The notes beneath the pieces are model-generated. The model was not told the origin of the DNA. It saw only the letters and a list, made by a program, of their open reading frames with translations, and ran no database searches. A program made the position numbers and the translations under genes. Shown one piece after another: positions 4,169-21,089 of a stretch of 64,000 bases of DNA (the stretch's first letter is position 1; each line of letters begins with the position of its first letter). The DNA is taken from NCBI GenBank assembly GCA_022842645.1, contig JALHPE010000003.1, positions 10,445 to 74,444 of the forward strand. The letters run 5' to 3'. The stretch comes from Minisyncoccota bacterium (GTDB taxonomy: Bacteria; Patescibacteriota; Minisyncoccia; Phycocordibacterales; UBA2100).

Positions 4169-5908
4169 TTATTGTGTCGTAGTTTCATCAGGTATACTTT
4201 TTTCTTCGCTTGAGGCTTCGCCTGCCGGAATTTCTGTGACAGCCACTTGATCTGCCTCATCGCCGAGAAGCAATGGGCTCAGCGTGTTAACTTCCGAAAA
4301 TGGCACCCTCTTTGCGAACGCCTTGAGTATAGCATCCTCACGCATCGTGCGCATACCTTGACTTCGTGCGGCAGCCCACAGTTTAGAATCCACCGGGTTC
4401 GTAAGCACGATTTTCTCAATCTCTGACGACATCTCTAAGACCTCAAACACTGCTGCGCGCCCTCGCATGCCGGTAGGACATGCTGCAGAGCGTTCTGGCT
4501 CATACACTTCGTTTGGTATGGGAAAACGATATTTTGCGGGAATCGTCGACAGGTCTTTTTCGATCGCTGTACGATCGCTTGCAGAAAGTGGCACCGGTTT
4601 CCCCGTGCCGTCACAGAGCGTACGCACGAGACGCTGTGCCATAGAGAGTATCAGCGTCGAAGGAATGAGGTACGGTTCGACACCCATGTCGATAAGACGC
4701 GGAATGGTACCCACGGCATCGTTAGTGTGAATCGTCGAAAGCACGAGGTGACCAGTGAGTGCTGCTTGCATCGCGAGCTTCGCCGTCTCACCATCGCGAA
4801 TCTCACCCACCATAATGATGTCGGGATCTTGGCGAAGCGTGGTGCGCAGACCATTTGCAAAAGTGTACCCAATTTCTGGTCGCACCTGCGACTGAATGAT
4901 GCCCTCGACGTGATACTCAATCGGATCTTCGAGTGAAAGAACATTCTGATGTTCACGATCGAGTTCGGCGAGCATGGAATAGAGTGTGGTGGATTTACCT
5001 GAGCCTGTAGGGCCTGAGATAAGAATGAGACCGTGCGGCCGCTTGATTGCCTCACGGATCAGACCTAAATCGCGCTCAGAAAAACCTAAATCGCCGAGTG
5101 GAATAAATCCCTGATTACGATCCAGAATACGCATCACGATCTTTTCTCCCATGTAGGTGGGAAATGTCGAGACACGAAAATCGATCTGGCGGTCGTCGAA
5201 TGATGCGGAAAAGCGACCATCCTGTGGCTTGCGTCGTTCATCAAGACGGATCGAGGAAAGCACCTTCACACGTGCAATGATTGCGCGGTGTGTTTCCATA
5301 GGGAGGACGACGCTCGTATGCAATTCTCCATCGACACGATAGCGCACACGCACCCCTGCACCAGTCGGTTCGATATGAATATCAGATGCCTTGCCATCAA
5401 TGGCATAGCGCAAAATCGTGGAGACAATTTTTACTGCAGGAGCATCTTCCCGAATAGTGTCGTTCCCTCCTCCTTGCCCCGCGAGATTCCCGAGCTGAAG
5501 CAAATCTTCTTCGTCGGAAAATTCCTTGGGAGCATCGTCTTTCTTTCGCACCTGCTCTTCGCTTTGTAAATCGGAGAGTGCGCGATCGACGTCCCCTCCA
5601 AGCCCTCGGTACATTTGTATGACTTTTTCGATGTCAGAATCCGGAATCTTAAAGAGCTTAAATGGCATCCCTGTTTTACGCGTGATGAAATTTAAGGCAT
5701 CGATAGCCGCGATGTTATCGGGATCTACAATACCAATCTCCAAAACTCCCTCCACGACAGCAAGCGGCGCAAAACGATAATGTTCCGCCGACTCTTCGGG
5801 AATATATTTCAATATCTCGTACGGAATCTTTGCCGAACCGAGCGTTCGCTCCGGCAGTGCCGAAGAAAAGCCGGACCCCGTGCCGCGTAAATCGGTGGGC
5901 GGAGGCAT
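4169..5908 (-). CDS. pilB: type IV pilus assembly ATPase PilB (GspE family)
   Basis: 579 aa. Walker A LILISGPTGSGKSTTLYSML, Asp box and His box of GspE/PilB secretion ATPases, N-terminal GspE_N-like region. Confidence 0.85.
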   Translation of the reverse strand: MPPPTDLRGTGSGFSSALPERTLGSAKIPYEILKYIPEESAEHYRFAPLAVVEGVLEIGIVDPDNIAAIDALNFITRKTGMPFKLFKIPDSDIEKVIQMYRGLGGDVDRALSDLQSEEQVRKKDDAPKEFSDEEDLLQLGNLAGQGGGNDTIREDAPAVKIVSTILRYAIDGKASDIHIEPTGAGVRVRYRVDGELHTSVVLPMETHRAIIARVKVLSSIRLDERRKPQDGRFSASFDDRQIDFRVSTFPTYMGEKIVMRILDRNQGFIPLGDLGFSERDLGLIREAIKRPHGLILISGPTGSGKSTTLYSMLAELDREHQNVLSLEDPIEYHVEGIIQSQVRPEIGYTFANGLRTTLRQDPDIIMVGEIRDGETAKLAMQAALTGHLVLSTIHTNDAVGTIPRLIDMGVEPYLIPSTLILSMAQRLVRTLCDGTGKPVPLSASDRTAIEKDLSTIPAKYRFPIPNEVYEPERSAACPTGMRGRAAVFEVLEMSSEIEKIVLTNPVDSKLWAAARSQGMRTMREDAILKAFAKRVPFSEVNTLSPLLLGDEADQVAVTEIPAGEASSEEKSIPDETTTQ

Positions 5909-6829: not shown

Positions 6830-7512
6830 AGAGTTTCTGGTGTTCCTTGCGGCTCACCAGCAGGTTCGAGCGGCGTGCCGAACGGTGTGGGGAGTGCGGA
6901 TTCTTCAGTTTGATCTGGCAATGTCACCTGCGCCGCGCGATACCGTAGTTTGGTTGGATCAACCGCAGCAGTAAAATCAAAGCGCACCCCCTCAATAGTC
7001 CTATTGATGTTGGAAAAAATCGGATTAAGAATGAGACCACTTCTCGCTAAAAGATCCGCCTGAAGCGCGATGGAATTGACGCTCTGTGCAACCCCCTGCA
7101 TCGCAATACCCATTTCGGTGTCATTCTGGGCAGTGAAGCTGAAGTTTGAAAACGCGACCGTCTGGAGCGTCAGCTGCTGTAACAGTTCGAAAATATCAGA
7201 GGGAGCAGTGTGCGTCGCAAGCACCTCATCAGCAGCTTTCATACGATCATCAAGACGCGTGAGCTCGCTGATAAGCGCAGGCTCGAATGCTTCTTTCGCT
7301 CGCTGCAGCTGCGCACGCTTGCTCTCCGCAGCAGTCGAGAGGTACTGCACATATAAAAAGACGCCAACTGCGAGTACGACGGAAGCAAAAAAGAGCACCA
7401 ATGAGACGAGGAGCCCGAGATCAGCGCCACCTTTTTGCTCGCGCCGTCCTCCAGCACTCGGCGCCGAAATAGGTGCTTGTGGTATAAACGAAGAACGAAT
7501 GTTTGATTCCAT
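6826..7512 (-). CDS. pilN: PilN-like pilus assembly protein
   Basis: 228 aa, single TM (LVSLVLFFASVVLAVGVFLYV) followed by coiled-coil. Directly downstream of pilM with 4-bp overlap to pilO. Confidence 0.55.
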   Translation of the reverse strand: MESNIRSSFIPQAPISAPSAGGRREQKGGADLGLLVSLVLFFASVVLAVGVFLYVQYLSTAAESKRAQLQRAKEAFEPALISELTRLDDRMKAADEVLATHTAPSDIFELLQQLTLQTVAFSNFSFTAQNDTEMGIAMQGVAQSVNSIALQADLLARSGLILNPIFSNINRTIEGVRFDFTAAVDPTKLRYRAAQVTLPDQTEESALPTPFGTPLEPAGEPQGTPETL

Positions 7513-7530
7513 AGAAAGTCCCTAACTTTC

Positions 7531-8682
7531 CTAGCCCTTCCTGAGTTCACGTAACGCGAGTCCGACCGGCACTGCAAAACCAGGGCCGATCGACTGAAGC
7601 ACTTGATCAAGAAATGCCGGTGCTTCAGTACGACTAAACGGATTCGCAATTTCCACCTGCGCGTGGAGCGCCTGATTCGCAAATCCTTGAAGTCCAGGAA
7701 GCGATGCGCCACCACCGCACAAAAGCACGTGCGACACATCTTTATTGTATCGCTTCCCGTAGCTCAATAGTACCCTATCAGCCTCTCCAAAGAGGCGCTC
7801 GAGTGTGGATAGAAGAGACTGCTTCACTTTATCATTTTCATCGACAGAAAAAGCTGAGGAACTGGTGAGCCCGCGCTCGCGCTTCACGCGCTCCGCTTTC
7901 TCAAAATCCCACGAAAGCGAGCGCGCAAGATGTTCGGTCATTTGTTGGCCACCGACCGTCGCGAGATGCGTCATGCGCACTACCCCGCGCTCGACGATAT
8001 ACATTTTTGTTGTTGAGGCACCCAAGTCAATCACCAGAACTGGTGCCAAACCATGGCCGAGGGAGCTCCGAATTGCACTGAAGATTTCTATTTCATAAAA
8101 ACGCGTGGAAAGTCCGGCGCCCGCGGCGATCGTCTGAAAATTGCGCACTGTATCGTTGTGAATGGCAACGAGAAGCACTTCTTGCCCCTTACTCTGAAGC
8201 GCCGTTTTGCCTTGAATACGATCAAAGGCCGCATCGCTTCCTTCTTCGGGCGGAATAACGAACCAATCAAGCATAACTTCCGAAACTGGCACTGGAATAT
8301 ATTTACGCGCCTCGATCGGAATCATTTGTTTTAAATGTTCCGGGTCAGTTTTGGGGAGATCGATAATCGAAACAAGGCTCGAAGAGAATGGTATCGACAT
8401 TCCCGCAACCTTTGCCGTGACATTCGCCTCCCGCATGAGGTCGAGCAGTGCTTCGGTTAAGGTTTCCGGCGAGAGCTTTACTGCTTTCCCCACTGGTTCT
8501 TTCGCATAGGGAGCAAGCGCGATTTCGCCATAGGTCTCGAGGACTGCCGCACCATGCGCAGAACGAAGTTGCACCACTTTTGCAGACGCCGCGCCTATGT
8601 CGACACCAATAACGCTACTCTCGGTTTTTCCCGTGAGCGCGGCAGAAAGCTTTTGCGTGAGCGTCCCTAACGATAACGCCAT
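7531..8682 (-). CDS. pilM: type IV pilus assembly protein PilM (actin-like ATPase fold)
   Basis: 383 aa. N-terminal VIGVDIGAASAKVVQL typical of PilM/FtsA-like proteins. Two actin-fold halves. Confidence 0.8.
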   Translation of the reverse strand: MALSLGTLTQKLSAALTGKTESSVIGVDIGAASAKVVQLRSAHGAAVLETYGEIALAPYAKEPVGKAVKLSPETLTEALLDLMREANVTAKVAGMSIPFSSSLVSIIDLPKTDPEHLKQMIPIEARKYIPVPVSEVMLDWFVIPPEEGSDAAFDRIQGKTALQSKGQEVLLVAIHNDTVRNFQTIAAGAGLSTRFYEIEIFSAIRSSLGHGLAPVLVIDLGASTTKMYIVERGVVRMTHLATVGGQQMTEHLARSLSWDFEKAERVKRERGLTSSSAFSVDENDKVKQSLLSTLERLFGEADRVLLSYGKRYNKDVSHVLLCGGGASLPGLQGFANQALHAQVEIANPFSRTEAPAFLDQVLQSIGPGFAVPVGLALRELRKG

Positions 8683-8731
8683 AGAGACAAGTATACCGTA
8701 CTTTGTATCGTGTGCGTCGTATGAAAAGCGA

Positions 8732-8765
8732 CAACTGGCTCAAATGGCGCCGATTGAGCCAGTTG
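8732..8765. repeat. ~34-bp palindromic element (copy 1), overlaps the RT stop codon
   Basis: CAACTGGCTCAAA TGGCGCCG ATTGAGCCAGTTG: 13-bp arms with one mismatch. A second 7-bp hairpin CACACGC/GCGTGTG lies at about 8776-8796. Confidence 0.5.
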
Positions 8766-9789
8766 CATATATGCGCCTCACACGCGCCTGAAGCGTGTGC
8801 GCATTGCCATGGGAGAGTAGCCCCAGATATGAATCGCGGACATGTTTATTCTCAGTGTGTGCGGCACAGTTCCGCAACATCCGTCGCTTCGTAGTCGTGC
8901 GCAGGACGCAATGGTCGGGAAAATGCACCCAGCCGAGGAAATCAACTCCAGACGCAAGAGTTGAAATTGAGATTTTGTTAGGATGCAGTTCGAGCTTGAG
9001 TGTCTCGCGCAGAAATACTGCTGCATGCGGCAGCATTTCTGTGAGTTCTCTGCGATCATGCGATAGAAAGACGAAATCATCCGCATACCGAATGTAGTAT
9101 CGTACCCTCAAGTGGTGTTTTACGAATTGGTCGAATTCGTTCATATAGATATTGACGAGAAGTTGCGAGGTAAGATTGCCGAGCGGCAGTCCCTTGCTAG
9201 GTACTCCCGAATCAAAGCTTGCGATAACGCGTCCGATGAGATCGACGATACGTTTGTCGCGAATGTGAGACGCAATAATGCGCATAAGCGTTTCCTGGTC
9301 GATCGAAGCAAAGAATTTCCGTATGTCGCATTTCAAGACCCAACACGTATGCGTATGGTTGCGCGAGACTTTGTATGCAAACGAGCGAAATCGATTCATC
9401 GCATGATGCGTGCCTTTCCCATTTCGACATGAGTATGAGTCCGCGATGAAGGTGCGGTCGAAGAATGGGTAGAGCTTGCGATAGAGCGCATGATGCAGGA
9501 GTCGGTCACGCACTGTGGCTTTGTGGATGTTTCTTGGCTTTGGGTCGGAGATGTTGAAGGCGCGGTACGGACCGTGCACGTATGTTCCTGCAACCAAGTC
9601 ACGATTGAGCGCAAGAATATTATCCATCAATCGATATTGAAATTCCTGCACATCTTGTTTCTTTCGCTTCCCGCGCACGAATTTCTTCCATGCCGCAAGG
9701 AGATTCGGAGCGGAGATGATATCCTCGTAGGTATGAGCGAAGACAAGATCCACACACCTAAGCCTGCCCCCCCCCTCACCTTTTTGCAA
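8740..9789 (-). CDS. DGR-type reverse transcriptase
   Basis: 349 aa. RT motifs: VLKCDIRKFFASID (motif A), LPLGNLTSQLLVNIYMNEFD (DGR-type [I/L]GxxxSQ instead of group-II/retron QGxxxSP), YIRYADDFVFL (YxDD), LELHPNK, FLGW thumb. No maturase/endonuclease domain. The true start may be the downstream GTG at 9753, because a C9/G9 homopolymer lies in codons 5-8. Confidence 0.85.
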   Translation of the reverse strand: MQKGEGGGRLRCVDLVFAHTYEDIISAPNLLAAWKKFVRGKRKKQDVQEFQYRLMDNILALNRDLVAGTYVHGPYRAFNISDPKPRNIHKATVRDRLLHHALYRKLYPFFDRTFIADSYSCRNGKGTHHAMNRFRSFAYKVSRNHTHTCWVLKCDIRKFFASIDQETLMRIIASHIRDKRIVDLIGRVIASFDSGVPSKGLPLGNLTSQLLVNIYMNEFDQFVKHHLRVRYYIRYADDFVFLSHDRRELTEMLPHAAVFLRETLKLELHPNKISISTLASGVDFLGWVHFPDHCVLRTTTKRRMLRNCAAHTENKHVRDSYLGLLSHGNAHTLQARVRRIYATGSIGAI

Positions 9790-9795
9790 CCGAAG

Positions 9796-10167
9796 CTCGT
9801 GCCCATAATTGAAAAAACTAAGGGTGCATACAAACTCTGGATACAGGCGCGGAGAAATATGCCGCGAACGGAACAGTTTGGGATTGGCAAGAAAACTGAC
9901 GATCTTTTTTTGATGCTTATGGAAACACTGCGCCGCGCATCATTTGCGGCGCATCAAGAGAAAATACCACTTCTCACTCATGCGGTTGGGCTCACGGATT
10001 CGCTCCGCTTTTTCCTTCAGATCGCATGGGAAAATGTTTTGGTCCGTCAGAATCAATACATTCCCTTAGCAACTGAAATCGAAGAGATTGGTCGCATGAT
10101 AGGTGGATGGCGCAAGGGTCTCGTTGCAAAAACCCCGCTTGAAAAAAGCGGGGAAAGAAAAGAGTAG
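9796..10167 (+). CDS. avd: Avd-like accessory variability determinant (four-helix-bundle protein), encoded antisense between TR and RT
   Basis: About 123 aa from GTG 9796 (ATG at 9859). N-terminal AYKLWIQA resembles the LxVWQKA start of Avd/TIGR02436 proteins. C-terminal ATEIEEIGRMIGGWRKGL resembles the conserved Avd C-terminal helix (E..RML.GLI). Stop codon TAG 10165-10167 abuts the TR. Orientation is opposite to RT/TR, which is atypical. Confidence 0.5.
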   Translation, partial: LVPIIEKTKGAYKLWIQARRNMPRTEQFGIGKKTDDLFLMLMETLRRASFAAHQEKIPLLTHAVGLTDSLRFFLQIAWENVLVRQNQYIPLATEIEEIGRMIGGWRKGLVAKTPLEKSGERKE

Positions 10168-10282
10168 CGGGAAGCAACCTGGTTGCCAGCATTCCACTCG
10201 TTCGGATTCGTCACGGAGTTCGCGAACAAGCTCCACCCACCGTTGTCGGAGTTCCAGTTCGCGTTCACGGCCCAGAGTGCTT
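10166..10282 (-). repeat. DGR template repeat (TR), sense on minus strand
   Basis: 117 bp, 111/117 identical to 10614-10730. All 6 mismatches have T in the TR on the plus strand (A on the sense strand): 10244, 10253, 10259, 10264, 10265, 10282. The first 78 bp (10166-10243) are identical. Confidence 0.75.
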
Positions 10283-10535
10283 TGTGCGTAGTGCCATCTT
10301 GTATCACCACAGTTCGACCCGCCAACTGGCGGATCTACGCCGCTGTATCGCATACGGGACCTCGAAGTCCTCCAGCATCACGCACCGATTCTTATCTTTT
10401 TTGAGGCATTCGCTCGTACGCTTACGCGAGACGCATCCAGCGCAATACTGACGACACGAATGAACGAGGTGCTGCACAGAAGTCGCGACCGCCGCACTCA
10501 AGCTATCCTCAGGGGTTAGTGTATCAAAAGTAAAA

Positions 10536-10574
10536 GACCCTCTAAATCCTGCTTGCGCGAAGATTCAGAGGGTC
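10536..10574 (-). promoter_or_regulatory. hairpin just downstream (sense) of the VR, candidate DGR homing-enhancing stem-loop
   Basis: GACCCTCT (10536-10543) pairs with AGAGGGTC (10567-10574), 8-bp perfect stem and ~23-nt loop. About 40 bp 3' of the VR end on the sense strand, as described for DGR VR-flanking cruciforms. Confidence 0.4.
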
Positions 10575-10611
10575 AAAGTATCTCAAACCCAAATTTCTCA
10601 GGGTTCAAGAA

Positions 10612-11241
10612 TCAGCGGGAAGCAACCTGGTTGCCAGCATTCCACTCGTTCGGATTCGTCACGGAGTTCGCGAACAAGCTCCACCCACCGTCGTCGGAGT
10701 GCCAGTGCGCGAACACGGCCCAGAGTGCTCCATTCTTGTCACGGACGTAGAAAATATTGGCGTAGCCATTCGTAAGAAGGTTGCCCTTCTCGCCGTTCGG
10801 TTGTTTCTCCAACATCGTCCACAGGTCGGCGAGGTATGTTTCGTGCGCCTCACCGAGCTCCTTGATGATCGGCCCGTCGACCGATGCCTTGCGAAGCGTG
10901 TGAAGCTTCAGCTCGCCTGCCGGAACGTTTTCCTCGACCTTCGCGAAGTTATCGCGGAAATTGTCCCAGACGAATGCGATCTTCACCGCTGCCTTTCGGC
11001 TGGTGTCGACCTTGAAGTGGTCTGCGGCGACAAATCGGCCGGCGCCGGATACGACAACGGTTGCGACGAAGTCGAGAAGATTCGATGCGGACTTCTTGCC
11101 GTTCGCACCAAGCGAATGGTTAAGAAAGCCCTGCATGTAGCTTCCGTCGATACTTCCGTCTTCGATCTGCCGGAACAGATCTTTGAGCTGAGAGGCCGTC
11201 ACATTGGACGAACCCTCGACGACAACTTTCTGAGCTGCCAT
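10612..11241 (-). CDS. DGR target (variable) protein, 209 aa, C-terminal VR; no signal peptide
   Basis: C-terminus ...KNGALWAVFAHWHSDDGGWSLFANSVTNPNEWNAGNQVASR is encoded by the VR. TR-encoded version ...ALWAVNANWNSDNGGW... has AAC/AAT (Asn) codons at the variable positions. N-terminus lacks a signal peptide or TM. Confidence 0.7.
   Translation of the reverse strand: MAAQKVVVEGSSNVTASQLKDLFRQIEDGSIDGSYMQGFLNHSLGANGKKSASNLLDFVATVVVSGAGRFVAADHFKVDTSRKAAVKIAFVWDNFRDNFAKVEENVPAGELKLHTLRKASVDGPIIKELGEAHETYLADLWTMLEKQPNGEKGNLLTNGYANIFYVRDKNGALWAVFAHWHSDDGGWSLFANSVTNPNEWNAGNQVASR
10614..10730 (-). repeat. DGR variable repeat (VR) at the 3' end of the target gene
   Basis: Counterpart of the TR. VR bases at the mismatch positions are C, G, G, A, A, C on the plus strand (sense-strand TR A -> G, C, C, T, T, G). 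Ends exactly at the target stop codon (10612-10614). Confidence 0.75.
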
Positions 11242-11342
11242 TGGTTTTTCTCCTTAAAGAGCATCCGGCACTATTGCCGAAGTGAAAACATCATACCACG
11301 CTACCACCCAGTTTGCAAGAGCGTAAAACGGGGCTCAAAACA

Positions 11343-11390
11343 GGGCTGTTTCAGCCCCACTGGCTCAAACGGCGCCGTTTGAGCCAGTTG
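11343..11390. repeat. small hairpin plus ~33-bp palindromic element (copy 2), between the wHTH pseudogene and the DGR target
   Basis: GGGCTG TTT CAGCCC (11343-11357), then CACTGGCTCAAA CGGCGCCG TTTGAGCCAGTTG (11358-11390). About 90% identical to copy 1 over ~36 bp. Confidence 0.5.
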
Positions 11391-11399
11391 CCATTGGGG

Positions 11400-11932
11400 C
11401 TAGGTTAGCGCGTAAAATGGTCTTTTCTGCTTCCCCACCCTGGTGAGGCGACCAGTTGTGGCAAGCTCGCGCACATAGCGGCTGGCTGTTGCATCGGAAA
11501 CTCCGAGAAGAATCTGCACATCGTTGTTGGTAATTTTCCCGCGCTCGCGTGCGAGGGCGACGATTTTTCGAGACGTGCGCGCTTTTTCCCAGCGCGTTTT
11601 TCAGCTGCGTAAGCGCGCCATGTTGCAATGCTTGGAGGAAGAGGTGCGGGCGGAGGGGTGAGGGGCACGGATATGGATGATGCCGAGGGTAGAGTGGCCG
11701 GCTCTGCATGTAAAACTGGCACCTCGGATTCAGTAGCACTTTCAATGTGGGACTTACGAAGTCCCACATCAGTCGCAAGGGGCTCCATGACGGGTTTCGG
11801 AAACTCGTCATTCACCTCTGGTGTAGATTCGGGAGCTGGCTCTTGTGCAACTTGTAGGGGTACTACAACCGGCTCCTCTACTACTTCAGGCACTGGTGTC
11901 GGTTCTATAGGCACGCTCGCCTCAGCGGTCAT
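11400..11932 (-). pseudogene. proline/acid-rich N-terminal ORF plus C-terminal winged-helix HTH in a different frame (candidate frameshifted DNA-binding protein)
   Basis: Frame B (11405..11932) encodes a Pro/Glu-rich low-complexity peptide ending ...AEKRAGKKRARLEKS. A second frame ending at TAG 11400-11402 encodes RKIVALARERGKITNNDVQILLGVSDATASRYVRELATTGRLTRVGKQKRPFYAL, a wHTH like Fic/RecG-type C-terminal domains. It is preceded by an in-frame TGA and has no start codon. The frames meet around two A5/T5 runs near 11584-11600. Confidence 0.35.
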
Positions 11933-12255
11933 AGCACTGCATCAATTTTCGCCGCAACAATAAAGTCGTTTTCGGAAAGACCTTGCACCGAGTGCGTGGA
12001 GAGTTCAATTTCCACACGACCCCAGGAGAGCGAGACATCCGGGTGATGCCCTTCTTCTTCCGCGATTGCCGCAACTTTTGCCACAAAATCAAACGCCGTT
12101 TTAAAATCGGGGAATTTGAATTCTCGGGAAATGGCGCGTGCGGCTGGCCAGAGTGTCCATCCATGTATTTCTTTGAGCAAACGTTCGGCTTCTTGCACGG
12201 GAAGTGGCGGACCACCAACTTCACAGGGTATGCACTTTTTTTCCGAGAGTGTCAT
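11929..12255 (-). CDS. phhB: pterin-4a-carbinolamine dehydratase (PCD/DCoH)
   Basis: 108 aa with the EEGHHPD signature and overall PCD fold pattern. Confidence 0.85.
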   Translation of the reverse strand: MTLSEKKCIPCEVGGPPLPVQEAERLLKEIHGWTLWPAARAISREFKFPDFKTAFDFVAKVAAIAEEEGHHPDVSLSWGRVEIELSTHSVQGLSENDFIVAAKIDAVL

Positions 12256-12935
12256 GCCATAATGCTACCATGCTCCGCCTCTTTCAGGTGGTTGCGTCCT
12301 CTCTCCAGGCGGTGCTCGATATTGTATTGCCACGCAAAGACCGCGCAGTGCGCGCCGCGCATTATTCGAGCGACTCACTTCCCGTTTCCCCGCTTACCCA
12401 AACCTACGGCGGCGTTTCGATCACCTCACTCCTCTCATACCAAGATCAAGCAGTGGAAGATTGCATTCGCGCGCTTAAATACGATGCCTCGGGTGCGGCG
12501 GCGCACATTCTTGCGGAGATTGTCGCTGAATACCTGCGAGAAGAAATTGCCCAGATTCGCGCGTTCAGTACCGAACCAATCTTATTGGTGCCCGCGCCGC
12601 TCCATCCACGAAGGTTTCGTGAACGTGGTTTTAATCAGGTTTCCCTCGTACTTGAGCGTCTCCCCAAAGAATTCCGAGACGGCACGCTCGCAACACTTTC
12701 ATTTGGCGTGATTGAACGCGTAAAAGAAACACGGCCACAGACACATCTTTCTCGCACCGAGCGCATGGAGAACGTAAAAAATGCCTTTGCCCTTGCAGAA
12801 CGCGACGCGGCCGCGCACTCTCATATCATCCTTATCGACGACGTCACGACGACGGGCGCGACGCTTTTCGAAGCGTCGCGCCCACTTGAACGCATTCACG
12901 CATCATTCACCCTCCTCGCACTTGCGCGCGCCTAA
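12204..12935 (+). CDS. comFC: ComF-family phosphoribosyltransferase-domain protein
   Basis: PRTase signature HIILIDDVTTTGATLFEA; LVPAPLHPRRFRERGFNQ region conserved in ComFC/GntX. The real start is probably the internal Met near 12270. Confidence 0.7.
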   Translation: MADHQLHRVCTFFPRVSCHNATMLRLFQVVASSLQAVLDIVLPRKDRAVRAAHYSSDSLPVSPLTQTYGGVSITSLLSYQDQAVEDCIRALKYDASGAAAHILAEIVAEYLREEIAQIRAFSTEPILLVPAPLHPRRFRERGFNQVSLVLERLPKEFRDGTLATLSFGVIERVKETRPQTHLSRTERMENVKNAFALAERDAAAHSHIILIDDVTTTGATLFEASRPLERIHASFTLLALARA

Positions 12936-12951
12936 CTATCAGTGTTTTTCC

Positions 12952-13824
12952 CTATGGATTACAACGCCCGCAATATTTCGGATCTGCAACATTCCCATAC
13001 TGCGTCACCTGTGTTTTTTCTGTATGACCACACGTGTCGCATTGATACATCTCATAAAGTGGCATATCGGTGGGGAGCGCACATACAGCACATGGAAGCC
13101 CCCGTTCAATGTTTGTGACGTGAAAACCTGGCGCATGACATCGTGAACATCGTGCATTCACATGTTGTAAGAGATCCTCTGTCGCCTTCTCTATTGCACG
13201 CATGCGTGTCGGATTTTTATGTGCACGCATATCGGTTTCAAGAAATACACGTTTTACAAAAGGGCGTTTGAGCATCCGATCCACCTGCGCAACCAATGCT
13301 TCTTCGGTTCGTATCTCCTTATGAATTCCCCACGGCCATCTCTTGCCAGTGCGAACAATAATGCCATGTTCAGGAAAGCCGATCTTGCGGGCAAATGCAC
13401 GAGCCTCCTCCACATTTGTGACCACACACTCATCAAGGTTTGTTTCTGTCGTGCGATGATGGCCGCGGATCTCATATCCATGGAGAGCATCAAGCAGGAG
13501 GACAAGCTCGAGATTTGAATCTATAAAAGGAAGTGAGGGATGCGCACCAAAACTCCCCTCGCTTGCCACAGCGAGGTCAGTGCCGGTGTTCTCCATGGCA
13601 ACACGCGCTTTTGCGCGTGCCGCTTCAAGCTGATTGCCTGCCCTTTTCACCTCTCGCGTAAACGTTCCAAATCGGTCTGAATCAAAATCCTGAGGTACCA
13701 CAACCTTAACACCTAGGTGTTCCTCAAGAAGGGGCGCAATAACGCGCTCCTTCCCATGCATAGTTGCTACAACGAGTTTACGACCCTTGAACGGCGAAGT
13801 ATGCTGCATATCTTTTGATACCAC
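12952..13824 (-). CDS. hypothetical protein with C-terminal Cys-rich zinc-ribbon pairs
   Basis: 290 aa. C-terminal CSRCH...CAVC...CDTC...CGRC arrangement. No confident family assignment. Confidence 0.4.
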   Translation of the reverse strand: MVSKDMQHTSPFKGRKLVVATMHGKERVIAPLLEEHLGVKVVVPQDFDSDRFGTFTREVKRAGNQLEAARAKARVAMENTGTDLAVASEGSFGAHPSLPFIDSNLELVLLLDALHGYEIRGHHRTTETNLDECVVTNVEEARAFARKIGFPEHGIIVRTGKRWPWGIHKEIRTEEALVAQVDRMLKRPFVKRVFLETDMRAHKNPTRMRAIEKATEDLLQHVNARCSRCHAPGFHVTNIERGLPCAVCALPTDMPLYEMYQCDTCGHTEKTQVTQYGNVADPKYCGRCNP

Positions 13825-16102: not shown

Positions 16103-17725
16103 TTGCATTACTCGTTAGTCCAATTGCATATGGCAAAGAAAAAGTCGGTGTCCCCTAAGGACATCTTCGAGCGACTTCTCAAAGATCGCTCAGCTCGCAT
16201 CGCGGCAGTGCGCCAGTCGCACCTATTATTCTTCCACATCTACTTCTCACGATACGTAAAGTACGGCACAGCACCGTTCCACAAGGAGATGTTTGAGCTT
16301 ACTGAAAACGTAAAGATACCACTCGCCGTTATCGTTGCTTTCCGCTCGTCGGGAAAATCAACGATTGTTACCACTTCATACCCACTATGGTCGATACTTG
16401 GCGAACAACAGAAGAAGTTCGTGCTCATTATCTCCCGTGTCCAATCACAGGCACAGCAACATCTTCGCAACATTAGACATGAGGTTGAGAGTAACCGGAT
16501 ACTGGCCAGTGACCTTGGACCTTTTGATTCAGAGCACGGACAGTTCGGTCTCCAGGCTCTTGTGTTCAAGAAGCTCGGAGCGAAAATCATGATTGCATCA
16601 GTCGATCAAAGTATTCGTGGACTGCGTCACTTGGAACATCGTCCTGACCTCATCATTCTTGATGACGTTGAAGATACGGCATCGGTGAAAACCCAAGAGA
16701 GTCGCAATTCGGCGTGGCAATGGTTCACAAGTGAGATACTCCCCATCGGTTCTGAAGGTACTAGGATCTTCGCTGTTGGAAATCTCCTTCATCGCGATTC
16801 ACTTCTGAAGCGCATCGAGACACAGATCGGGTTAGGCACGCTCGGCGTGTATCGTGAATATCCGATTGTGAAAGACGGCGTGCCGCTTTGGACTGCGAAG
16901 TATCCAGACGCAGATGCAATCGAAGCCGAGCGCAAACGCATCATGGATCGCGTAGCATGGCATCGTGAATACTTGTTGGAGATTCTGCCCGATGATGACC
17001 AACTTATTCATCCTCAATGGATTCAGCGATACGATACGTTGCCGACAGAACGACCTCGCCACACTCTCATTGGACTCGACCCAGCAATCTCAAAAGAAGC
17101 AAGTGCAGATTGTACGGCAATGGTTGGTATATGGGTGTATGGCTCAAAAGAAAATACAAGAATATATATCTACCCGCAGATTGTGAACAAGCGACTCACG
17201 TTCAACGAAGCGGTTCAAGAAGCTGAGGCACTCTCTCATGCCGTTGGAAACGGCAGCCGTGCCCACATATACGCAGAAAAAGTCGCCTACCAACAAGCAC
17301 TCATCGAACACCTCAAAAGCCGAGGCAATCCTGTTGACGGCATTTCCCCGGGAGGCACTGACAAGCACGCACGACTCGCGTCAGTAACGCATTTCTTCGA
17401 AACGGGCAAGGTGTTTTTTCCCAAAACCACTGTTGCTGAGGTCTTGATCAACCAGCTTCTTGGCTTTGGAGTTGAAAAGCATGACGACCTCGTCGATGCC
17501 CTCACACTCGCGCTCCACCAAGTTATGTACAAGGATCGCTATGGAGGCGCAATCGGCGTCCTCTGGAATACGCCACCTCGCGAGGAAGAGATGATGAACC
17601 TCAGTAGTCGAGAAAAGTTCGTCATCATGGAAAAGTGGCGTGAGAATAGGAACAATAATCCGTTTCTCATCAGAGGTGGCAGAACACCCATGCCCGACGA
17701 CTGGAAGCCACGCTGGGATCGGTAA
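16103..17725 (+). CDS. phage terminase large subunit-like protein (paralog 1)
   Basis: 540 aa. N-terminal ATPase with deviant Walker A VIVAFRSSGKST and Walker B LIILDDVED. C-terminal RNase-H-like nuclease with IGLDPA ... HDDLVDALTLAL (Terminase_6-type). About 45% identical to the ORF at 21070..22578. Confidence 0.7.
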   Translation: MHYSLVQLHMAKKKSVSPKDIFERLLKDRSARIAAVRQSHLLFFHIYFSRYVKYGTAPFHKEMFELTENVKIPLAVIVAFRSSGKSTIVTTSYPLWSILGEQQKKFVLIISRVQSQAQQHLRNIRHEVESNRILASDLGPFDSEHGQFGLQALVFKKLGAKIMIASVDQSIRGLRHLEHRPDLIILDDVEDTASVKTQESRNSAWQWFTSEILPIGSEGTRIFAVGNLLHRDSLLKRIETQIGLGTLGVYREYPIVKDGVPLWTAKYPDADAIEAERKRIMDRVAWHREYLLEILPDDDQLIHPQWIQRYDTLPTERPRHTLIGLDPAISKEASADCTAMVGIWVYGSKENTRIYIYPQIVNKRLTFNEAVQEAEALSHAVGNGSRAHIYAEKVAYQQALIEHLKSRGNPVDGISPGGTDKHARLASVTHFFETGKVFFPKTTVAEVLINQLLGFGVEKHDDLVDALTLALHQVMYKDRYGGAIGVLWNTPPREEEMMNLSSREKFVIMEKWRENRNNNPFLIRGGRTPMPDDWKPRWDR

Positions 17726-17764
17726 AAGACTGTGGAATACGGGGTTGGCGTGAGGGTGTAGAAT

Positions 17765-18523
17765 GTGCGTATGGAAACACAGACACGAACACCAGTGCCA
17801 ATGCTCGGCATCGTTGTGGAGGCACGGCGAGAAGCACAGCGTACCGTTGAAACGATGAATCGGGCATTGCAGCCGACACTACGAGTGCTCAACAGCGACT
17901 TCATGCGAAACTTGATGTCGATGGCGAACGCTGCCAATCGTCATATGGAGCCATTGCTTCGATTTCAAAAACAGATGGATAGCGTGCTCGGAGAACACCG
18001 TGAGGCACTGGGGTGCGCACTTTCTCCCTTCGTATCGGCGGCATACACGCACGCGACTCACCCTGAAACCATTCACTACATACCTGCCCGCCCCGTTATC
18101 AAGTCAGAACCACGTGAGATTAATGTCGAATCGATAGCGGAAGAGTTAGTGGCAGTGTTCGCAAAAAAAGGTTTGGTACTCATTGAGCGCACAACCTTTG
18201 CTCAAATCGACCTCGTATACAACCGAAAGAATCGGACACTTGAATACAGCGCAGGTACCGCGCACCGCGCTACAAGTTTCCAAGATACGGAAAGCAACAA
18301 GCGTCGTGAATTGTTCGATACTCTCGTTCAAACAAAGCGGAAAATTACAGGACGCGAGCTGAAAAAGATACTTGGCTGCCCCAACACTGATGCAACGTAC
18401 AAAGTCGTTCAGGGATTGAACCGAAAAATGAAGAATGAGCTTGGTCTCACCGTTAATATCGTGGATGGTAGTGGCCGAGATGGCTACCACATTCACAAAA
18501 CCATCGCGATCCACCCGAAGTAA
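17765..18523 (+). CDS. hypothetical protein with C-terminal OmpR/PhoB-like winged-helix DNA-binding domain
   Basis: 252 aa. C-terminal ...ITGRELKKILGCPN...NIVDGSGRDGYHI resembles OmpR-type wHTH. No receiver domain. Confidence 0.4.
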   Translation: MRMETQTRTPVPMLGIVVEARREAQRTVETMNRALQPTLRVLNSDFMRNLMSMANAANRHMEPLLRFQKQMDSVLGEHREALGCALSPFVSAAYTHATHPETIHYIPARPVIKSEPREINVESIAEELVAVFAKKGLVLIERTTFAQIDLVYNRKNRTLEYSAGTAHRATSFQDTESNKRRELFDTLVQTKRKITGRELKKILGCPNTDATYKVVQGLNRKMKNELGLTVNIVDGSGRDGYHIHKTIAIHPK

Positions 18524-18686
18524 CATCTACCCACACATCTGGAGTGTGGATAGTGATTAAAAATGGCTCTGCATAAGGGTCTTTTTTCTATGGAGTCTCC
18601 AGTGAGTAGGTATGTGTTGTGGGGGCAGAAAATGGTCTGCTTGTAATGCAGGCCTTGTGTCTGTTTACCAGATTAGCAACACATAT

Positions 18687-19961
18687 ATGGCACAAAAATT
18701 AGCATGGCGCACGGTCGACAAAAAGATATCCGACCTCGTACCGAACATAAAGAACCCGCGCACGATGTCCCCGAAGCAGGTCGACGATCTTAAACGGTCG
18801 CTCAAGAAATTCGACTTGGTCGAGCTACCTGTGGTTGACACCGACAACACCGTAATCGCAGGGCACCAGCGCCTCATGGTGCTCAAACTCCTCGGTCGCG
18901 AGCACGAATCTATCCCCGTGCGTCTACCCAATCGCAAGCTCACCCAAAAGGAATACGATCAGTACCTCCTCGGCAGCAACCGCATCCACGGCGACTGGGA
19001 CTGGCAGGCACTTGCCGACAATTTCGACATTGGAACGCTTCTCTCAAGCGGCTTCGATGACACCGACCTGACCCACATCTTCGACGACTTGGAAGTCGAG
19101 GACGACGAGTTCGATGTCGACAAAGAACTCGAAAAGATTAAAAAGCCGGTCACCAAGTCCGGTGAGATGTTCCAGCTCGGTACGCACCGCATCATTTGCG
19201 GCGACAGCACGGATCCCAAGGTGCTCAAGAGATTGATGGGTGGCAAGAAAGCAAACTCCATTCTGCAAGATCCGCCATACAACATTTCCCTCGACTACAA
19301 CAAAGGCATCGGCGGCAAGCGCAATTACGGTGGCACCGTCGATGACGCGAAGCCAGACAAGGAGTACAAAAAGTTTCTCAAGACGGCACTAGAGAACACC
19401 CTGTCGGTGCTTGAAAAAGACGCACACGTATTCACGTACTGCGATCAGAAGTACATCTGGCTCTTGCAAACGCTCTACGCCGAACTTGGCATCGCTAACA
19501 AACGTGTATGCCTGTGGGTAAAGAATAATTCAACCCCCACGCCGCAAGTTGCCTTCAACAAACAGTACGAGCCGTGCGTGTATGGCACGGTCGGCAAGCC
19601 GTACTTGAGTGAGAAGGTGTTGAATCTTTCAGAAGTTTTGAACAAAGACATCGGCACCGGCAACCGCACATTGGAAGACATCTACGACATGATCGACATT
19701 TGGTTAGTAAAGAGATTGAACGGCACCGACTACCAGCATCCCACCGAGAAACCCCCGATGCTTCATGAGAAAGCTCTGCGACGCTGTACGAAGCCGGGCA
19801 ATATCGTGCTGGATTGCTTTGGTGGCTCGGGCAGTTTGCTCATCGCCTGTGAACAACTCAAACGCTCCGCGTACTTGGTCGAACGCGAGCCGATATTCGT
19901 TGATCTCGTCATCCGCAGATATGAAAAACTCACCGGACAAAAAGCAAAAAGACTCCGATAA
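18687..19961 (+). CDS. ParB-like nuclease domain fused to N6/N4 DNA methyltransferase
   Basis: N-terminal LVPNIKNPR...AGHQRL (ParB/Srx fold). Methyltransferase motif IV ILQDPPY followed by C-terminal motif I VLDCFGGSGS (beta-class order). Start set at internal ATG 18687. Confidence 0.75.
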   Translation: MAQKLAWRTVDKKISDLVPNIKNPRTMSPKQVDDLKRSLKKFDLVELPVVDTDNTVIAGHQRLMVLKLLGREHESIPVRLPNRKLTQKEYDQYLLGSNRIHGDWDWQALADNFDIGTLLSSGFDDTDLTHIFDDLEVEDDEFDVDKELEKIKKPVTKSGEMFQLGTHRIICGDSTDPKVLKRLMGGKKANSILQDPPYNISLDYNKGIGGKRNYGGTVDDAKPDKEYKKFLKTALENTLSVLEKDAHVFTYCDQKYIWLLQTLYAELGIANKRVCLWVKNNSTPTPQVAFNKQYEPCVYGTVGKPYLSEKVLNLSEVLNKDIGTGNRTLEDIYDMIDIWLVKRLNGTDYQHPTEKPPMLHEKALRRCTKPGNIVLDCFGGSGSLLIACEQLKRSAYLVEREPIFVDLVIRRYEKLTGQKAKRLR

Positions 19962-20688
19962 GTTCTGGCAGCTCGGAGATCACCGACTCGCGCAAGGCGA
20001 TTGCCGTGATGCCACGCTCCTCAAAACGTTGCTCGGTATAGAGCATATCAACGTACTGTGTACAGATCCGCCGTATGGAGTTGCAGTCGCAGAGTCCAAG
20101 CGCAACTTCAGGACGCTCACCAAGGACAAAGACATCGCCGGCGATCAGCTGCAATCGGATGAAGAGTACCGTCAATTCAGCAAGGAGTGGTTGGAGGCAC
20201 TCGTGCCCTACCTCGCCAAGAAAAACAGTGCGTACATCTTCAACGCCGACAAGATGGTGTGGTCGTTGCGCGACGGCATGGCTGATAGCGACTTCAAGAT
20301 CGCGCAATTGCTTGTATGGGTGAAGCAACAATCCGTCATCGGGAGATTGGACTATGCCCCTCAACACGAACTCATCGTGTATGGCTGGCATGGTACGCAC
20401 CACTTCAGGCGCTCGAAGGATAAATCGGTGCTGTTCTACCCGCGCCCCAACAAAAGCAAATTGCATCCGACCACCAAACCGATTGGCTTGGTACGGCGAC
20501 TCGTCTTCAACAGCACCAGCATGGGTGATGTTGTTTTCGATGGGTTCCTTGGGAGCGGTACGACTCTGTTGGCATGTGAGCAGACAAAACGTCGTTGCTT
20601 CGGGATCGAGCTTGATCCCGAGTACTGCCAGACCATCATCAAACGTTGGGAAAAAATGACCGGCCGCAAAGCAAAACGCATATGTTAA
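19921..20688 (+). CDS. N6/N4 DNA methyltransferase (second copy)
   Basis: LCTDPPYG (motif IV) and VFDGFLGSGTTLLACE (motif I). Overlaps the previous gene by ~40 bp, and its own end overlaps the TerS-like gene. Confidence 0.75.
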   Translation: MKNSPDKKQKDSDKFWQLGDHRLAQGDCRDATLLKTLLGIEHINVLCTDPPYGVAVAESKRNFRTLTKDKDIAGDQLQSDEEYRQFSKEWLEALVPYLAKKNSAYIFNADKMVWSLRDGMADSDFKIAQLLVWVKQQSVIGRLDYAPQHELIVYGWHGTHHFRRSKDKSVLFYPRPNKSKLHPTTKPIGLVRRLVFNSTSMGDVVFDGFLGSGTTLLACEQTKRRCFGIELDPEYCQTIIKRWEKMTGRKAKRIC

Positions 20689-21089
20689 AGAAAAGCGACC
20701 AACTCAAGGCTGCTCTACTGGAGCAGCTACGAAAGACGCCAATCATTCAGATCGCGTGCGAGAAATTAAACATCTCCCGCATGTCCTTCTATCGCTGGAA
20801 ACAAGAAGATCCGGAGTTTGCAAAGAACATTGATGATGCGCTCCTCGACGGACAGCTTTTAGTAAATGATCTTGCAGAATCGCAACTGATATCAGCGATT
20901 AAGGATCGAAACATGCACGCCGTTATGGCGTGGCTCAAACATCACCATCCGTCATACACCACACGAGTACAGATCGAAGGTACGGTCAACACCATTCAAG
21001 AACTCTCACCCGAGCAAAAGGAATTGGTGCGGAAGGCACTCGAATTAGCAAATCTAACCCTCAACGACCATGAACAACTTAACGCATGA
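20682..21089 (+). CDS. terminase small subunit-like HTH protein
   Basis: About 135 aa. ACEKLNISRMSFYRWKQEDPEF is an HTH_23/terminase-small-subunit-like helix-turn-helix. Immediately precedes and overlaps the second TerL. Confidence 0.45.
   Translation: MLKKSDQLKAALLEQLRKTPIIQIACEKLNISRMSFYRWKQEDPEFAKNIDDALLDGQLLVNDLAESQLISAIKDRNMHAVMAWLKHHHPSYTTRVQIEGTVNTIQELSPEQKELVRKALELANLTLNDHEQLNA

Follow-up and report, generated by a model that had tools for sequence, protein, structure and literature searches.

The two palindromes which flank the DGR cassette of this window (the whole stretch of 64 kb that was analysed) belong to a small conserved family of palindromes, near-perfect and 26–34 bp long; this is well supported. 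Equally well supported is the nature of the bracket which they form: it consists of the regular 3' palindrome of a winged-helix gene (wHTH), namely copy 2, plus one further copy of the family found after the reverse transcriptase gene (RT), namely copy 1. They are neither att scars nor parts of the DGR mutagenesis. As to their role, the reading which we prefer, with a probability of about 40% as judged from sequence, is that they are REP-like border elements of an inserted module, which may act as sites for wHTH dimers and/or as insulating hairpins. The features of the region are collected in Table 1.

Table 1. Palindromes, DGR components and neighbouring genes in the window
Feature	Position	Strand	Details
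Palindrome copy 1	8732-8765	.	34 bp, imperfect, CAACTGGCTCAAATGGCGCCGATTGAGCCAGTTG
Palindrome copy 2	11358-11390	.	perfect 30-bp core ACTGGCTCAAACGGCGCCGTTTGAGCCAGT at 11359-11388
Degenerate tandem family copy	11329-11357	-	GGGGCTCAAAACAGGGCTGTTTCAGCCCC, 14 bits with the covariance model
wHTH gene	11400-11932	-	frameshifted; ATG overlaps DCoH stop codon
DGR reverse transcriptase (RT)	8740-9789	-	RVT_1, 1.8e-25
avd (bAvd)	9784-10167	+	PF22296; antisense, between TR and RT
Template repeat (TR)	10166-10281	-	116 nt
DGR target gene	10612-11241	-	VR at 10614-10729
Target-gene promoter and 5'UTR hairpin	11242-11318	-	TTGCAA-17-TATGAT; conserved hairpin cttcggcaatagtgccggatgctctttaaggag
pilM, first gene of type IV pilus operon	7531-8682	-	right flank of insertion
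Pterin-4a-carbinolamine dehydratase (DCoH)	11929-12255	-	left flank of insertion

Both palindromes are real, with the sequences and positions already given by the sequence-only reading. Their identity had been estimated as about 90%: they differ by two substitutions and one indel, which corresponds to about 91%. The positions also uphold the bracketing of the target, TR, avd and RT. Copy 1 has one A.A mismatch and one T.G pair. When the 30-mer was searched in the 64 kb with up to 3 mismatches, copies 1 and 2 were the sole sites, with 0 expected from 100 shuffles. A covariance model of 18 family members, used with filters off, gave 51.5 bits for copy 1 and 53.6 bits for copy 2; the remainder of the window does not exceed 14 bits. 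A REP dispersed within the window is rejected, as neither method found further copies; half-sites number 10 with 5 expected. An Rfam search of positions 7000–13000 (E<=1) yielded a chance match only (anti-hemB, 18 bits).

Copy 1 covers the last 26 nt of the RT ORF, so that the overlap with its stop codon described before is correct; pilM starts about 50 nt further downstream. Copy 2 is found where it had been placed, between the frameshifted wHTH and the target gene: it follows the stop of the frameshifted frame after 9 nt, and the target gene starts 117 nt downstream of it. The two small hairpins attributed to the neighbourhood of the palindromes stand only in part. The hairpin CACACGC/GCGTGTG (8779-8799) exists, but it is inside the RT ORF and is not kept in the nzgw465 orthologue. 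GGGCTG-TTT-CAGCCC (11343-11357) is also present, but as part of the degenerate tandem family copy. On the minus strand this degenerate copy reads as a hairpin followed by GUUUUACG and is terminator-like; locus L059 has the same layout of two palindromes upstream of the target promoter. The DGR itself is genuine: it has RVT_1 and bAvd Pfam matches, and the 116 nt of TR and VR show 5 differences, all of them at TR adenines. Homologues of the RT in other CPR DGRs have 66–79% identity, and the target leader sequence is homologous in L020, L046, L050, L053 and L060.

The family is found in Kaiserbacteria and other Patescibacteria (CPR). Its consensus is CAACTGGCTCAAAC-GGCGCC-GTTTGAGCCAGTTG, with an invariant CTCA...TGAG box and complementary arms in the rest. 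The palindrome with a GGCGCC core is present in Kaiserbacteria MFLD01 and JAHFMV01, in 'bacterium C24' and in a MAG labelled as Saccharibacteria; 241 M metagenome records added about 7 further copies, on 7 contigs. Species-representative genomes with matches have 1–3 exact-arm copies each, a number which diverged subtypes would raise. There are several subtypes, in clusters of 2–3, intergenic and mostly just past stop codons; away from the DGR the neighbours are unrelated (NYN, clpB, HIT, small ORFs). All members but one lie downstream of the end of a co-directional gene, 0–110 nt past its stop codon. The exception is a copy in L038 (2063-2088), in a divergent intergenic region and 12 nt upstream of a start codon, a location which goes against both a border and a terminator. 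L008 and L060 carry orthologues of copy 1 at the 3' end of RT, and L046/L061 a collapsed remnant. It is well supported that the family is REP-like in form and low in copy number. It appears to be undescribed and modestly novel: our literature search on DGRs with palindromes or HTH in CPR, and on REPs in Patescibacteria, found nothing relevant. A phage element is rejected, since a loose viral scan gave chance matches only and a strict IMG/VR scan 0 copies. A dif site or terminus is also rejected: there is no GC-skew switch near 8–12 kb, genomes have several copies and there is no similarity to dif arms.

The association with the wHTH gene is constant. A clear family palindrome lies 0–20 nt past the wHTH stop codon in 7 of the 8 lineages examined (the window, L020, L050, L019/L033, L028/L041/L042, L054-56 and L057/58); the eighth, L053, has degenerate copies only. 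In four loci taken by wHTH homology alone, a strong covariance match was found at three of the wHTH genes (L050, L054 and L058, the latter standing for the L057/58 lineage), and the other genes of these loci had no match at E<=0.1. The wHTH gene occurs in 6 genomic contexts. The palindrome is better conserved than the wHTH protein: it is identical in 29–30 of 30 positions between genomes in which the wHTH domains have about 46–65% identity and PilM 78%. In L020, L050 and L053 it adjoins the -35 box (TTGCAT) of the target promoter.

The protein has a disordered N-terminal part rich in Pro and Glu and a C-terminal winged helix; the intact orthologue matches wHTH domains of the DeoR/FaeA/DUF977/AbiEi_4 type in Pfam. 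In the window its frame is broken at an A5 run (about 11556-11560), a frameshift seen in 5 independent assemblies. Its AF2 model (pLDDT 86) has a long helix and a winged helix, and the best structural matches are operator-binding dimers of the MarR/ArsR type. Matches to Zalpha domains raised the question of Z-DNA, which we reject: the palindrome centres are not alternating purine-pyrimidine and the matches correspond to generic winged helices. The recognition helix VSDATATRYL is almost invariant. A covariation of this helix with the palindrome subtype is not seen, because the helix does not change.

A comparison with related genomes indicates, with good support, that the unit wHTH-palindrome-target-TR-avd-RT-palindrome, about 3.2 kb long, was inserted between the stop codon of DCoH and the promoter of pilM. 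Empty sites are found in L044/L045 (PilM 87% identical) and L048/L049 (84%). In them the DCoH stop overlaps the pilM -10 box (TGATATAAT), and there is neither wHTH nor DGR. They have no palindrome at up to 8 substitutions and no covariance-model match, so that no single copy marks an empty site, as had been envisaged; DCoH simply abuts pilM. The module had been placed between the HTH gene and the pilus operon. This is right on the pilM side, but the wHTH gene belongs to the insert and the flank is DCoH. On the left the insert begins with the wHTH ATG, which overlaps the DCoH TGA (11929-11932) and lies about 540 bp outside copy 2; about 17 nt separate copy 1 from the right end. In sister DGRs of this locus 0 or 1 palindrome is present. 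Among related DGRs, none is intact in L046/L061, L059 has degenerate ones on the 5' side only, L050 has the 5' one only and L060 the 3' one only. Adenine-specific TR/VR mismatches are nevertheless present in L046/61, L059, L060 and L050, so that the palindromes are not needed for the DGR. The DGR block is found in the contexts DCoH-pilM, HIT-recJ (L059) and ligA (L053).

These data bear on whether the palindromes are recombination or cassette-junction sites (attC-, dif- or pdif-like) which move small modules such as wHTH, NYN, orf98 and the DGR block, the DGR being flanked by two of them. The att-like proposal was right in that the DGR is an inserted module, but the palindromes are absent from empty sites, and the module contains wHTH, target, Avd and RT with no integrase or recombinase gene. 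Bracketing does recur, as pal-NYN-pal-pal (L040), pal-pal-81-aa ORF-pal (L039), pal-orf98-pal (L038) and pal-DGR-pal (window, nzgw465). The same modules appear in different contexts with palindromes at their edges: the context of the NYN gene differs between L014 and L040, and the order of two palindromes and orf98/149 between L001 and L038. The outer ends are often CAAC...GTTG (7 of 18 variants). However, bracketing follows trivially if a 3' palindrome comes with every small gene. On its left side the insertion starts with the wHTH gene and not with a palindrome, and no recombinase gene is found in or beside any module. A symmetric centre gives no directionality, extrahelical bases are lacking and so are the length and R boxes of attC. 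The TA cassette found at this locus lacks palindromes, and no excised or inverted variants were found among contigs of the same population. We consider recombination sites quite unlikely. A related idea, which we regard as very unlikely, is an undescribed CPR cassette system, with 3' palindromes which would serve as crossover or recognition sites and be recognised by the co-travelling wHTH, the modules being gained, lost or shuffled. If true, its modules would be the wHTH gene, an NYN nuclease gene, orphan ORFs and the whole DGR block; the DGR hot spot at DCoH-pilM would then have an explanation, and DGRs would have their first mobility unit defined in cis.

The symmetry of the family is strongly preserved. 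Among the 18 variants 91% of cells are paired; two-sided changes occur in 11 of 15 pairs, with 36 two-sided and 3 one-sided cells. The observed values were reached by none of 500 shuffles on 4 of the 5 measures, and by 1 of 500 on the number of further pair types. Half-sites (TGAGCC/GGCTCA) in the flanks number 9, with 0.95 expected. The hairpins are very stable throughout the family, from -20 to -50 kcal/mol (z -3.4 to -9.8); copy 1 folds with -20.8 kcal/mol (z = -4.4). A purely RNA-level explanation takes the palindromes for 3'-end stem-loops, either factor-independent terminators or hairpins which stabilise mRNA, such as the REPs of E. coli. They would accompany small accessory genes, and the association with wHTH would mean no more than that this gene has a conserved terminator of its own. 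Besides the stability and the covariation which preserves pairing, the location of nearly all copies shortly past a co-directional stop codon is in agreement with it. Copy 1 is followed by the T-rich tract TTGTCGCTTTTC, and TTGTCGCT(C)TTTT follows both copy 1 and its orthologue in L008. But copy 2 and most members have no U-tract, and the consensus terminator/promoter scan called neither palindrome. Canonical terminators follow the palindrome in L054 and in the window, whereas in L040 the terminator precedes it. The L038 copy in a divergent region does not fit either. Furthermore, the centres which should form the loop have palindromic sequences of their own (GGCGCC, CCGGCCGG, AGCGCT) and the family has hardly any G.U pairs, which points to a dyad at the DNA level. 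The two informative imperfect copies (copy 1 of the window and that of L020) have a mismatch which reads C.A in the sense strand but U.G in the antisense strand. A terminator would need neither the invariant CTCA/TGAG box nor 97–100% identity across distant genomes. Altogether we find this explanation possible, but doubtful. The REP-like terminator suggested originally is retained in part: the elements are dispersed, diversifying, clustered and mostly 3' of genes, but they have low copy number, few U-tracts and one copy in a divergent region.

It may also be thought that we are dealing with a selfish or neutral mini-repeat of the REP/MITE kind, serving neither the host nor the DGR and spread by a transposase in trans or by template switching; its border position would be a historical accident. 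The presence of several subtypes and doublets and the low-copy dispersal in unrelated intergenic regions are as expected for such a repeat, and hairpin-templated correction yields perfect palindromy and two-sided changes without selection. On the other hand, the identity at orthologous sites (97–100%) persists despite saturated synonymous divergence (PilM 78% amino-acid identity), and a repeat of this kind does not account for a clear copy after one gene family in 7 of 8 lineages. About 320 kb were examined with no transposase except one rve fragment (L014), and viral contigs have no copies. A selfish repeat is unlikely.

In the reading as border elements, the palindromes would mark the borders of the inserted module and would be the dyad-symmetric sites recognised by the co-travelling wHTH protein, whose long N-terminal helix seems suited to dimerisation. 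As DNA sites and/or strong stem-loops they could separate the transcription of the module from that of its neighbours: copy 2 would do so between the DCoH-wHTH transcript and the target-gene promoter, copy 1 between RT and the putative leaderless pilM promoter. Of the three readings first proposed, binding by the neighbouring wHTH protein appears to gain most. Some features are less favourable to it. The arms vary by compensation while the recognition helix is constant, as expected if selection acts on pairing and not on contacts with a protein. The centres of the invariant boxes are separated by 16 bp and so lie on opposite faces of B-DNA, an unfavourable geometry for a simple dimer. The complementarity in L060 and L040 goes far past the core, and these stems of 23 bp exceed the need of a protein site. 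Both palindromes of the window are intact in spite of the frameshift in its wHTH, and L060 keeps a large palindrome at the RT 3' end with no adjacent wHTH.

The results define a conserved pair of cis-element and wHTH gene in Patescibacteria, where hardly any regulation has been characterised. The evidence indicates that DGRs recur at the DCoH-pilM junction of Kaiserbacteria, for which close relatives have clean empty sites, and that this DGR clade moves as a block together with its promoter/leader and bordering palindromes. Palindromes around a cassette should be compared with empty sites before they are read as att sites.

Several known systems resemble this family. The cis elements of DGRs (IMH/IMH*, the hairpin/cruciform 3' of VR, the TR-spacer RNA) are also inverted repeats associated with the cassette, but our palindromes lie outside the VR-TR-RT core, are also found at non-DGR loci and are missing from sister DGRs which still show adenine-specific mutagenesis. 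Like attC and Xer-dependent pdif sites, they are found 3' of small context-independent accessory genes, bracket cassettes and are absent from empty sites. They differ from attC in size (30–34 bp instead of 55–140 bp), in having a symmetric centre and in lacking extrahelical bases and R''/R' boxes (RYYYAAC...GTTRRRY); no integrase or Xer gene is nearby and no recombination products were observed. They share low copy number and conservation with ParB-parS-like palindromes. A regulator of the MarR/DeoR/ArsR type with its operator is similar in having a small wHTH with a putative dimerisation helix, a palindrome beside the gene and a small number of further copies in the rest of the genome, some of which adjoin a -35 box. 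Here, however, the site is 3' of the putative regulator gene and not in its own promoter, the half-site boxes are 16–21 bp apart and the arms covary with no change in the recognition helix. From the REP/BIME elements of Proteobacteria the family differs in copy number (about 1–3 exact-arm copies per genome, 2 in 64 kb, instead of tens to hundreds), in its conservation across CPR lineages, REPs being species-specific, and in its constant linkage to a winged-helix gene; it has no GTAG-type 5' tetranucleotide, and the loci examined contain no RAYT transposase (IS200/IS605-type Y1). In other respects the likeness is close. REPs have specific binding proteins and are able to terminate transcripts or to stabilise them. 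They are palindromes of about 30 bp, imperfect to perfect, extragenic and mostly just downstream of genes, and those studied here measure 30–34 bp and are intergenic except copy 1. Both occur singly or as doublets of different subtypes, with a conserved stem base and compensatory variation elsewhere.

Two palindromes flank the diversity-generating retroelement (DGR) of the window, with the sequence and positions described in the sequence-only reading. A 30-mer search tolerating 3 mismatches, an arm search with gaps and a scan for inverted repeats gave no third site in the 64 kb, where none is expected by chance. A covariance model of 18 family members gives 51–54 bits to both copies and at most 14 bits to the rest of the window. 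The hairpins of this family are very stable, whichever strand is considered. Copy 1, which is followed by TTGTCGCTTTTC, lies between the stop of the reverse transcriptase (RT) and the promoter of pilM, the first gene of the type IV pilus operon. Copy 2 follows the end of the DCoH-wHTH transcription unit and precedes the target promoter, from which a degenerate second copy with a U-tract separates it. The DGR enclosed by them is genuine and lies on the minus strand: its template repeat (TR) and variable repeat (VR) have 5 mismatches over 116 nt, all five at TR adenines. pilM appears to be leaderless: it lacks a Shine-Dalgarno sequence, and only 7–8 nt separate the -10 box from its ATG.

Features of the DGR locus in the window and in loci of relatives or metagenome contigs (L numbers); positions without an L number are in the window. 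DCoH, pterin-4a-carbinolamine dehydratase; wHTH, small winged-helix gene
Feature	Position	Strand	Remarks
Copy 1	8732–8765		CAACTGGCTCAAATGGCGCCGATTGAGCCAGTTG
Copy 2	11358–11390		perfect 30-bp palindrome inside, 11359–11388
pilM	7531–8682		flank on one side of DGR
RT	8740–9789	minus	
bAvd (accessory gene)	9784–10167	plus	
TR	10166–10281		116 nt
VR	10614–10729		116 nt
Target gene	10612–11241	minus	
wHTH, frameshifted	11400–11932		flank on other side
A5 run in wHTH	11556–11560		minus strand: CTCGAAAAATCGTC
DCoH	11929–12255		beyond wHTH
DCoH-pilM junction	8683–8731 and 11929–11932; L044 2265–2290; L048 4670–4700		L044, L048: empty sites
Antitoxin/ParE pair	L020 6390–6820; L050 5245–5674; L060 192–615		between DCoH and wHTH or immediately ahead of DGR target
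G-tract	9767–9775; L008 803; L046 5954; L050 7853; L059 4978; L060 2148		window: C9 plus, G9 minus
Target promoter and 5′UTR hairpin	11242–11318; L020 7297–7414; L046 about 4450–4545; L050 6312–6387; L053 5330–5391	minus (window)	
12-bp hairpin	10535–10585	minus	about 30–75 nt downstream of VR end
DUF6671 gene	12952–13824		
Terminase large-subunit-like ORFs	16103–17725; 21070–22578 (Terminase_6C)		
N6/N4 DNA methylase	18612–19961		
NYN gene	L040 1209–1984; L014 3130–3832		with promoter and 3′ region

The two copies belong to a family which extends beyond this locus. When 185,579 species-representative genomes were scanned with exact arms, the palindrome with a GGCGCC core turned up in CPR genomes only: two Kaiserbacteria MAGs (2 and 3 copies), 'bacterium C24' and one MAG labelled as Saccharibacteria. 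The remaining exact-arm matches have unrelated centres and were set aside as chance or other repeats. Metagenomes gave only about 7 further true copies and a strict scan of IMG/VR gave none. Among the neighbours of these other copies are clpB, genes for a HIT protein, an NYN domain and a HAD hydrolase, and small ORFs; the palindrome is specific neither to this locus nor to DGRs. The covariance model also finds diverged members directly beside known ones, with arms GGGTCA..TGACCC, ATCGGCTCA..TGAGCCGAT or CACCTCA..TGAGGTG and centres GGCGCC, GCCGGC or AGCGCT. There are thus several subtypes, some members form doublets, and the family clusters around small accessory genes. In these features it is REP/BIME-like, a REP-like element having been one of the readings from the sequence alone, but its copy number is low. 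The gene with the NYN domain (PIN-like RNase) is found, together with a conserved promoter and 110 nt of 3′ region, in two genomic contexts (L040 and L014). It is bordered in both by family palindromes of differing subtypes, and in L014 a fragment of an rve-type transposase lies just upstream.

The pairing of the arms is conserved. Among 18 variants 91% of the cells are paired, both sides have changed in 11 of the 15 pairs, and two-sided cells stand against one-sided ones as 36 to 3. Shuffles matched the observed values in 0/500 cases on four of five measures and in 1/500 for further pair types; in slid registers pairing drops to 24–44%. The C-T-C-A / T-G-A-G box is near-invariant, the only deviation being at one pair of the four in a single variant. 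Palindromic centres, the near-absence of G.U pairs and an excess of TGAGCC/GGCTCA half-sites in the flanks (9 observed, 0.95 expected) point to a dyad at the DNA level and not to an RNA hairpin alone. Complementarity reaches far outward in L060 (a 23-bp stem) and L040, which counts against a simple protein site. A terminator or stabiliser acting purely on RNA is rather unlikely: U-tracts are missing from most copies, the order with respect to canonical terminators varies (L040 versus L054) and one copy in L038 is found in a divergent region.

The strongest association of the family is with the small winged-helix gene. In the relative nzgw465 (L020) the intact orthologue of the frameshifted gene stops 5 nt before the palindrome. 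A canonical palindrome also follows the wHTH stop in a type I R-M neighbourhood (L019/L033) and before a HAD gene (L028/L041/L042). The stop is followed by ACTGGCTCATTCCGGCCGGAATGAGCCAGT at the DCoH-pilM locus of L050, by TGTGGCTCAATTCCACCATTTGAGCCACA in an AlbA_2 neighbourhood (L054–56) and by TACGCCTCAAATAGCGCTATTTGAGGCGTA plus a canonical half-site after pgk (L057/58); after ligA (L053) there are degenerate copies only. Among four loci fetched by wHTH homology alone, three of the four wHTH genes have a strong model match and no other gene of these loci has one at E<=0.1. The companion palindrome touches the -35 box TTGCAT in L020, L050 and L053. The protein has a winged helix of the DeoR/FaeA/DUF977 type, with a nearly invariant recognition helix VSDATATRYL. 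Its AF2 model (pLDDT 86) has a long N-terminal helix before the winged helix, and its closest matches in structure are dimers of the MarR/ArsR type that bind operators, a generic result. Between genomes, palindrome identity is 29–30/30 where the wHTH domains share about 46–65%. The best-supported mechanism, with a probability of about 0.4, is that a dimer of the co-travelling wHTH protein would bind the palindromes, together with hairpin formation. The palindromes would be border elements.

In the window the wHTH gene is split: an A5 run carries a frameshift of one base, so that the N-terminal 122 codons and the winged-helix domain are in different frames. The same A5 was found in five independent assemblies of short reads, each from a different run, and an assembly error can thus be dismissed in favour of a real pseudogene or a frameshift at a slippery site.

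Close relatives were found through PilM homologues. In L044/L045 (87% PilM identity) and L048/L049 (84%) the DCoH stop overlaps or adjoins the pilM -10 box TGATATAAT, and no wHTH, DGR or palindrome is present at DCoH-pilM. The inserted DNA therefore measures about 3.2 kb and comprises the whole block from the wHTH start codon, which overlaps the DCoH stop at the left edge, as far as about 17 nt beyond copy 1. The sequence-only reading had proposed to see whether a single palindrome marks an empty site: these four loci have zero copies. Recombination sites at cassette junctions would agree with the differing contexts of the modules and with the repeated finding of palindromes on both sides of NYN, of orf98 and of an 81-aa ORF; they are improbable, as no recombinase lies in or beside any module, the centres are symmetric, the empty sites have no palindrome and contigs of the same population show no structural variants. 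In Kaiserbacteria, DGRs have repeatedly been inserted at the DCoH-pilM junction, as have toxin-antitoxin (TA) pairs and wHTH. The pair found there in three relatives, a small antitoxin and a ParE-family toxin, has no palindrome of its own.

Sister DGRs at this locus vary in their palindromes. The order is wHTH-palindrome-DGR-palindrome in nzgw465, with a target gene different from that of the window; wHTH-palindrome-DGR in L050, with a degraded RT and no 3′ copy; and TA-DGR-palindrome in L060, with the palindrome extended to 50 bp and no wHTH. L046/L061 have the DGR only: their RT-pilM junction, AAATGGCTC joined to GTTCTGTCTTTTG, looks by its sequence like a collapsed palindrome, and on the 5′ side a small hairpin follows AAGAGGC. 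The closest RT (79% identity) is in L059, between HIT and recJ, with two degenerate palindromes upstream of the common promoter/leader and none after RT; L053 has wHTH and a DGR downstream of ligA. All these DGRs have adenine-specific TR/VR differences, even where palindromes are missing; mutagenic homing can therefore do without the palindromes. At the borders of the block in this DGR clade they are recurrent but inconsistent. That they are a selfish or neutral mini-repeat is likewise improbable.

Between avd and RT, whose starts are divergent, every DGR of the clade has a G9–G11 tract within the conserved motif TTGCAAAAAGGTGA-Gn-CAGG. Its length varies among relatives (9, 10, 11) and some contigs break at it; the tract may switch RT/avd expression by slipped-strand phase variation. 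The target genes of the clade share a conserved promoter, TTGCNN-17-TAnAnT, and a 5′UTR hairpin, CTTCGGCAAT-NNN-GCCGRATGCTCTTTRAGGAG; the target proteins differ from genome to genome. Downstream of VR in the window, a 12-bp hairpin GACCCTCTGAATC...GATTTAGAGGGTC and then TTTTACTTTTG form either the target gene terminator or a VR-proximal DGR hairpin. Independent short-read assemblies of one population break inside VR (ends of L182–L184) and in the TR/avd region, which fits TR/VR repeat collapse or VR heterogeneity in the population; contigs L029–L032 start at avd or the G-tract. The terminase-like ORFs and the methylase, some 4 kb away from the DGR locus, hint at a mobile island or the remnant of a prophage (16103–22578).

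No description of the family was found in Rfam or in the literature searched on DGR palindromes/HTH in CPR and on REP in Patescibacteria. Together with wHTH it makes a candidate protein/cis-site pair of CPR bacteria that lends itself to testing, and a hot spot of DGR insertion is documented with clean empty sites. The palindromes do not have the testable properties of att or attC sites. They differ from REP sequences in copy number, and no RAYT is known for the family. In their working, the nearest known systems are REP/BIME elements or low-copy palindromes of the operator/parS type.
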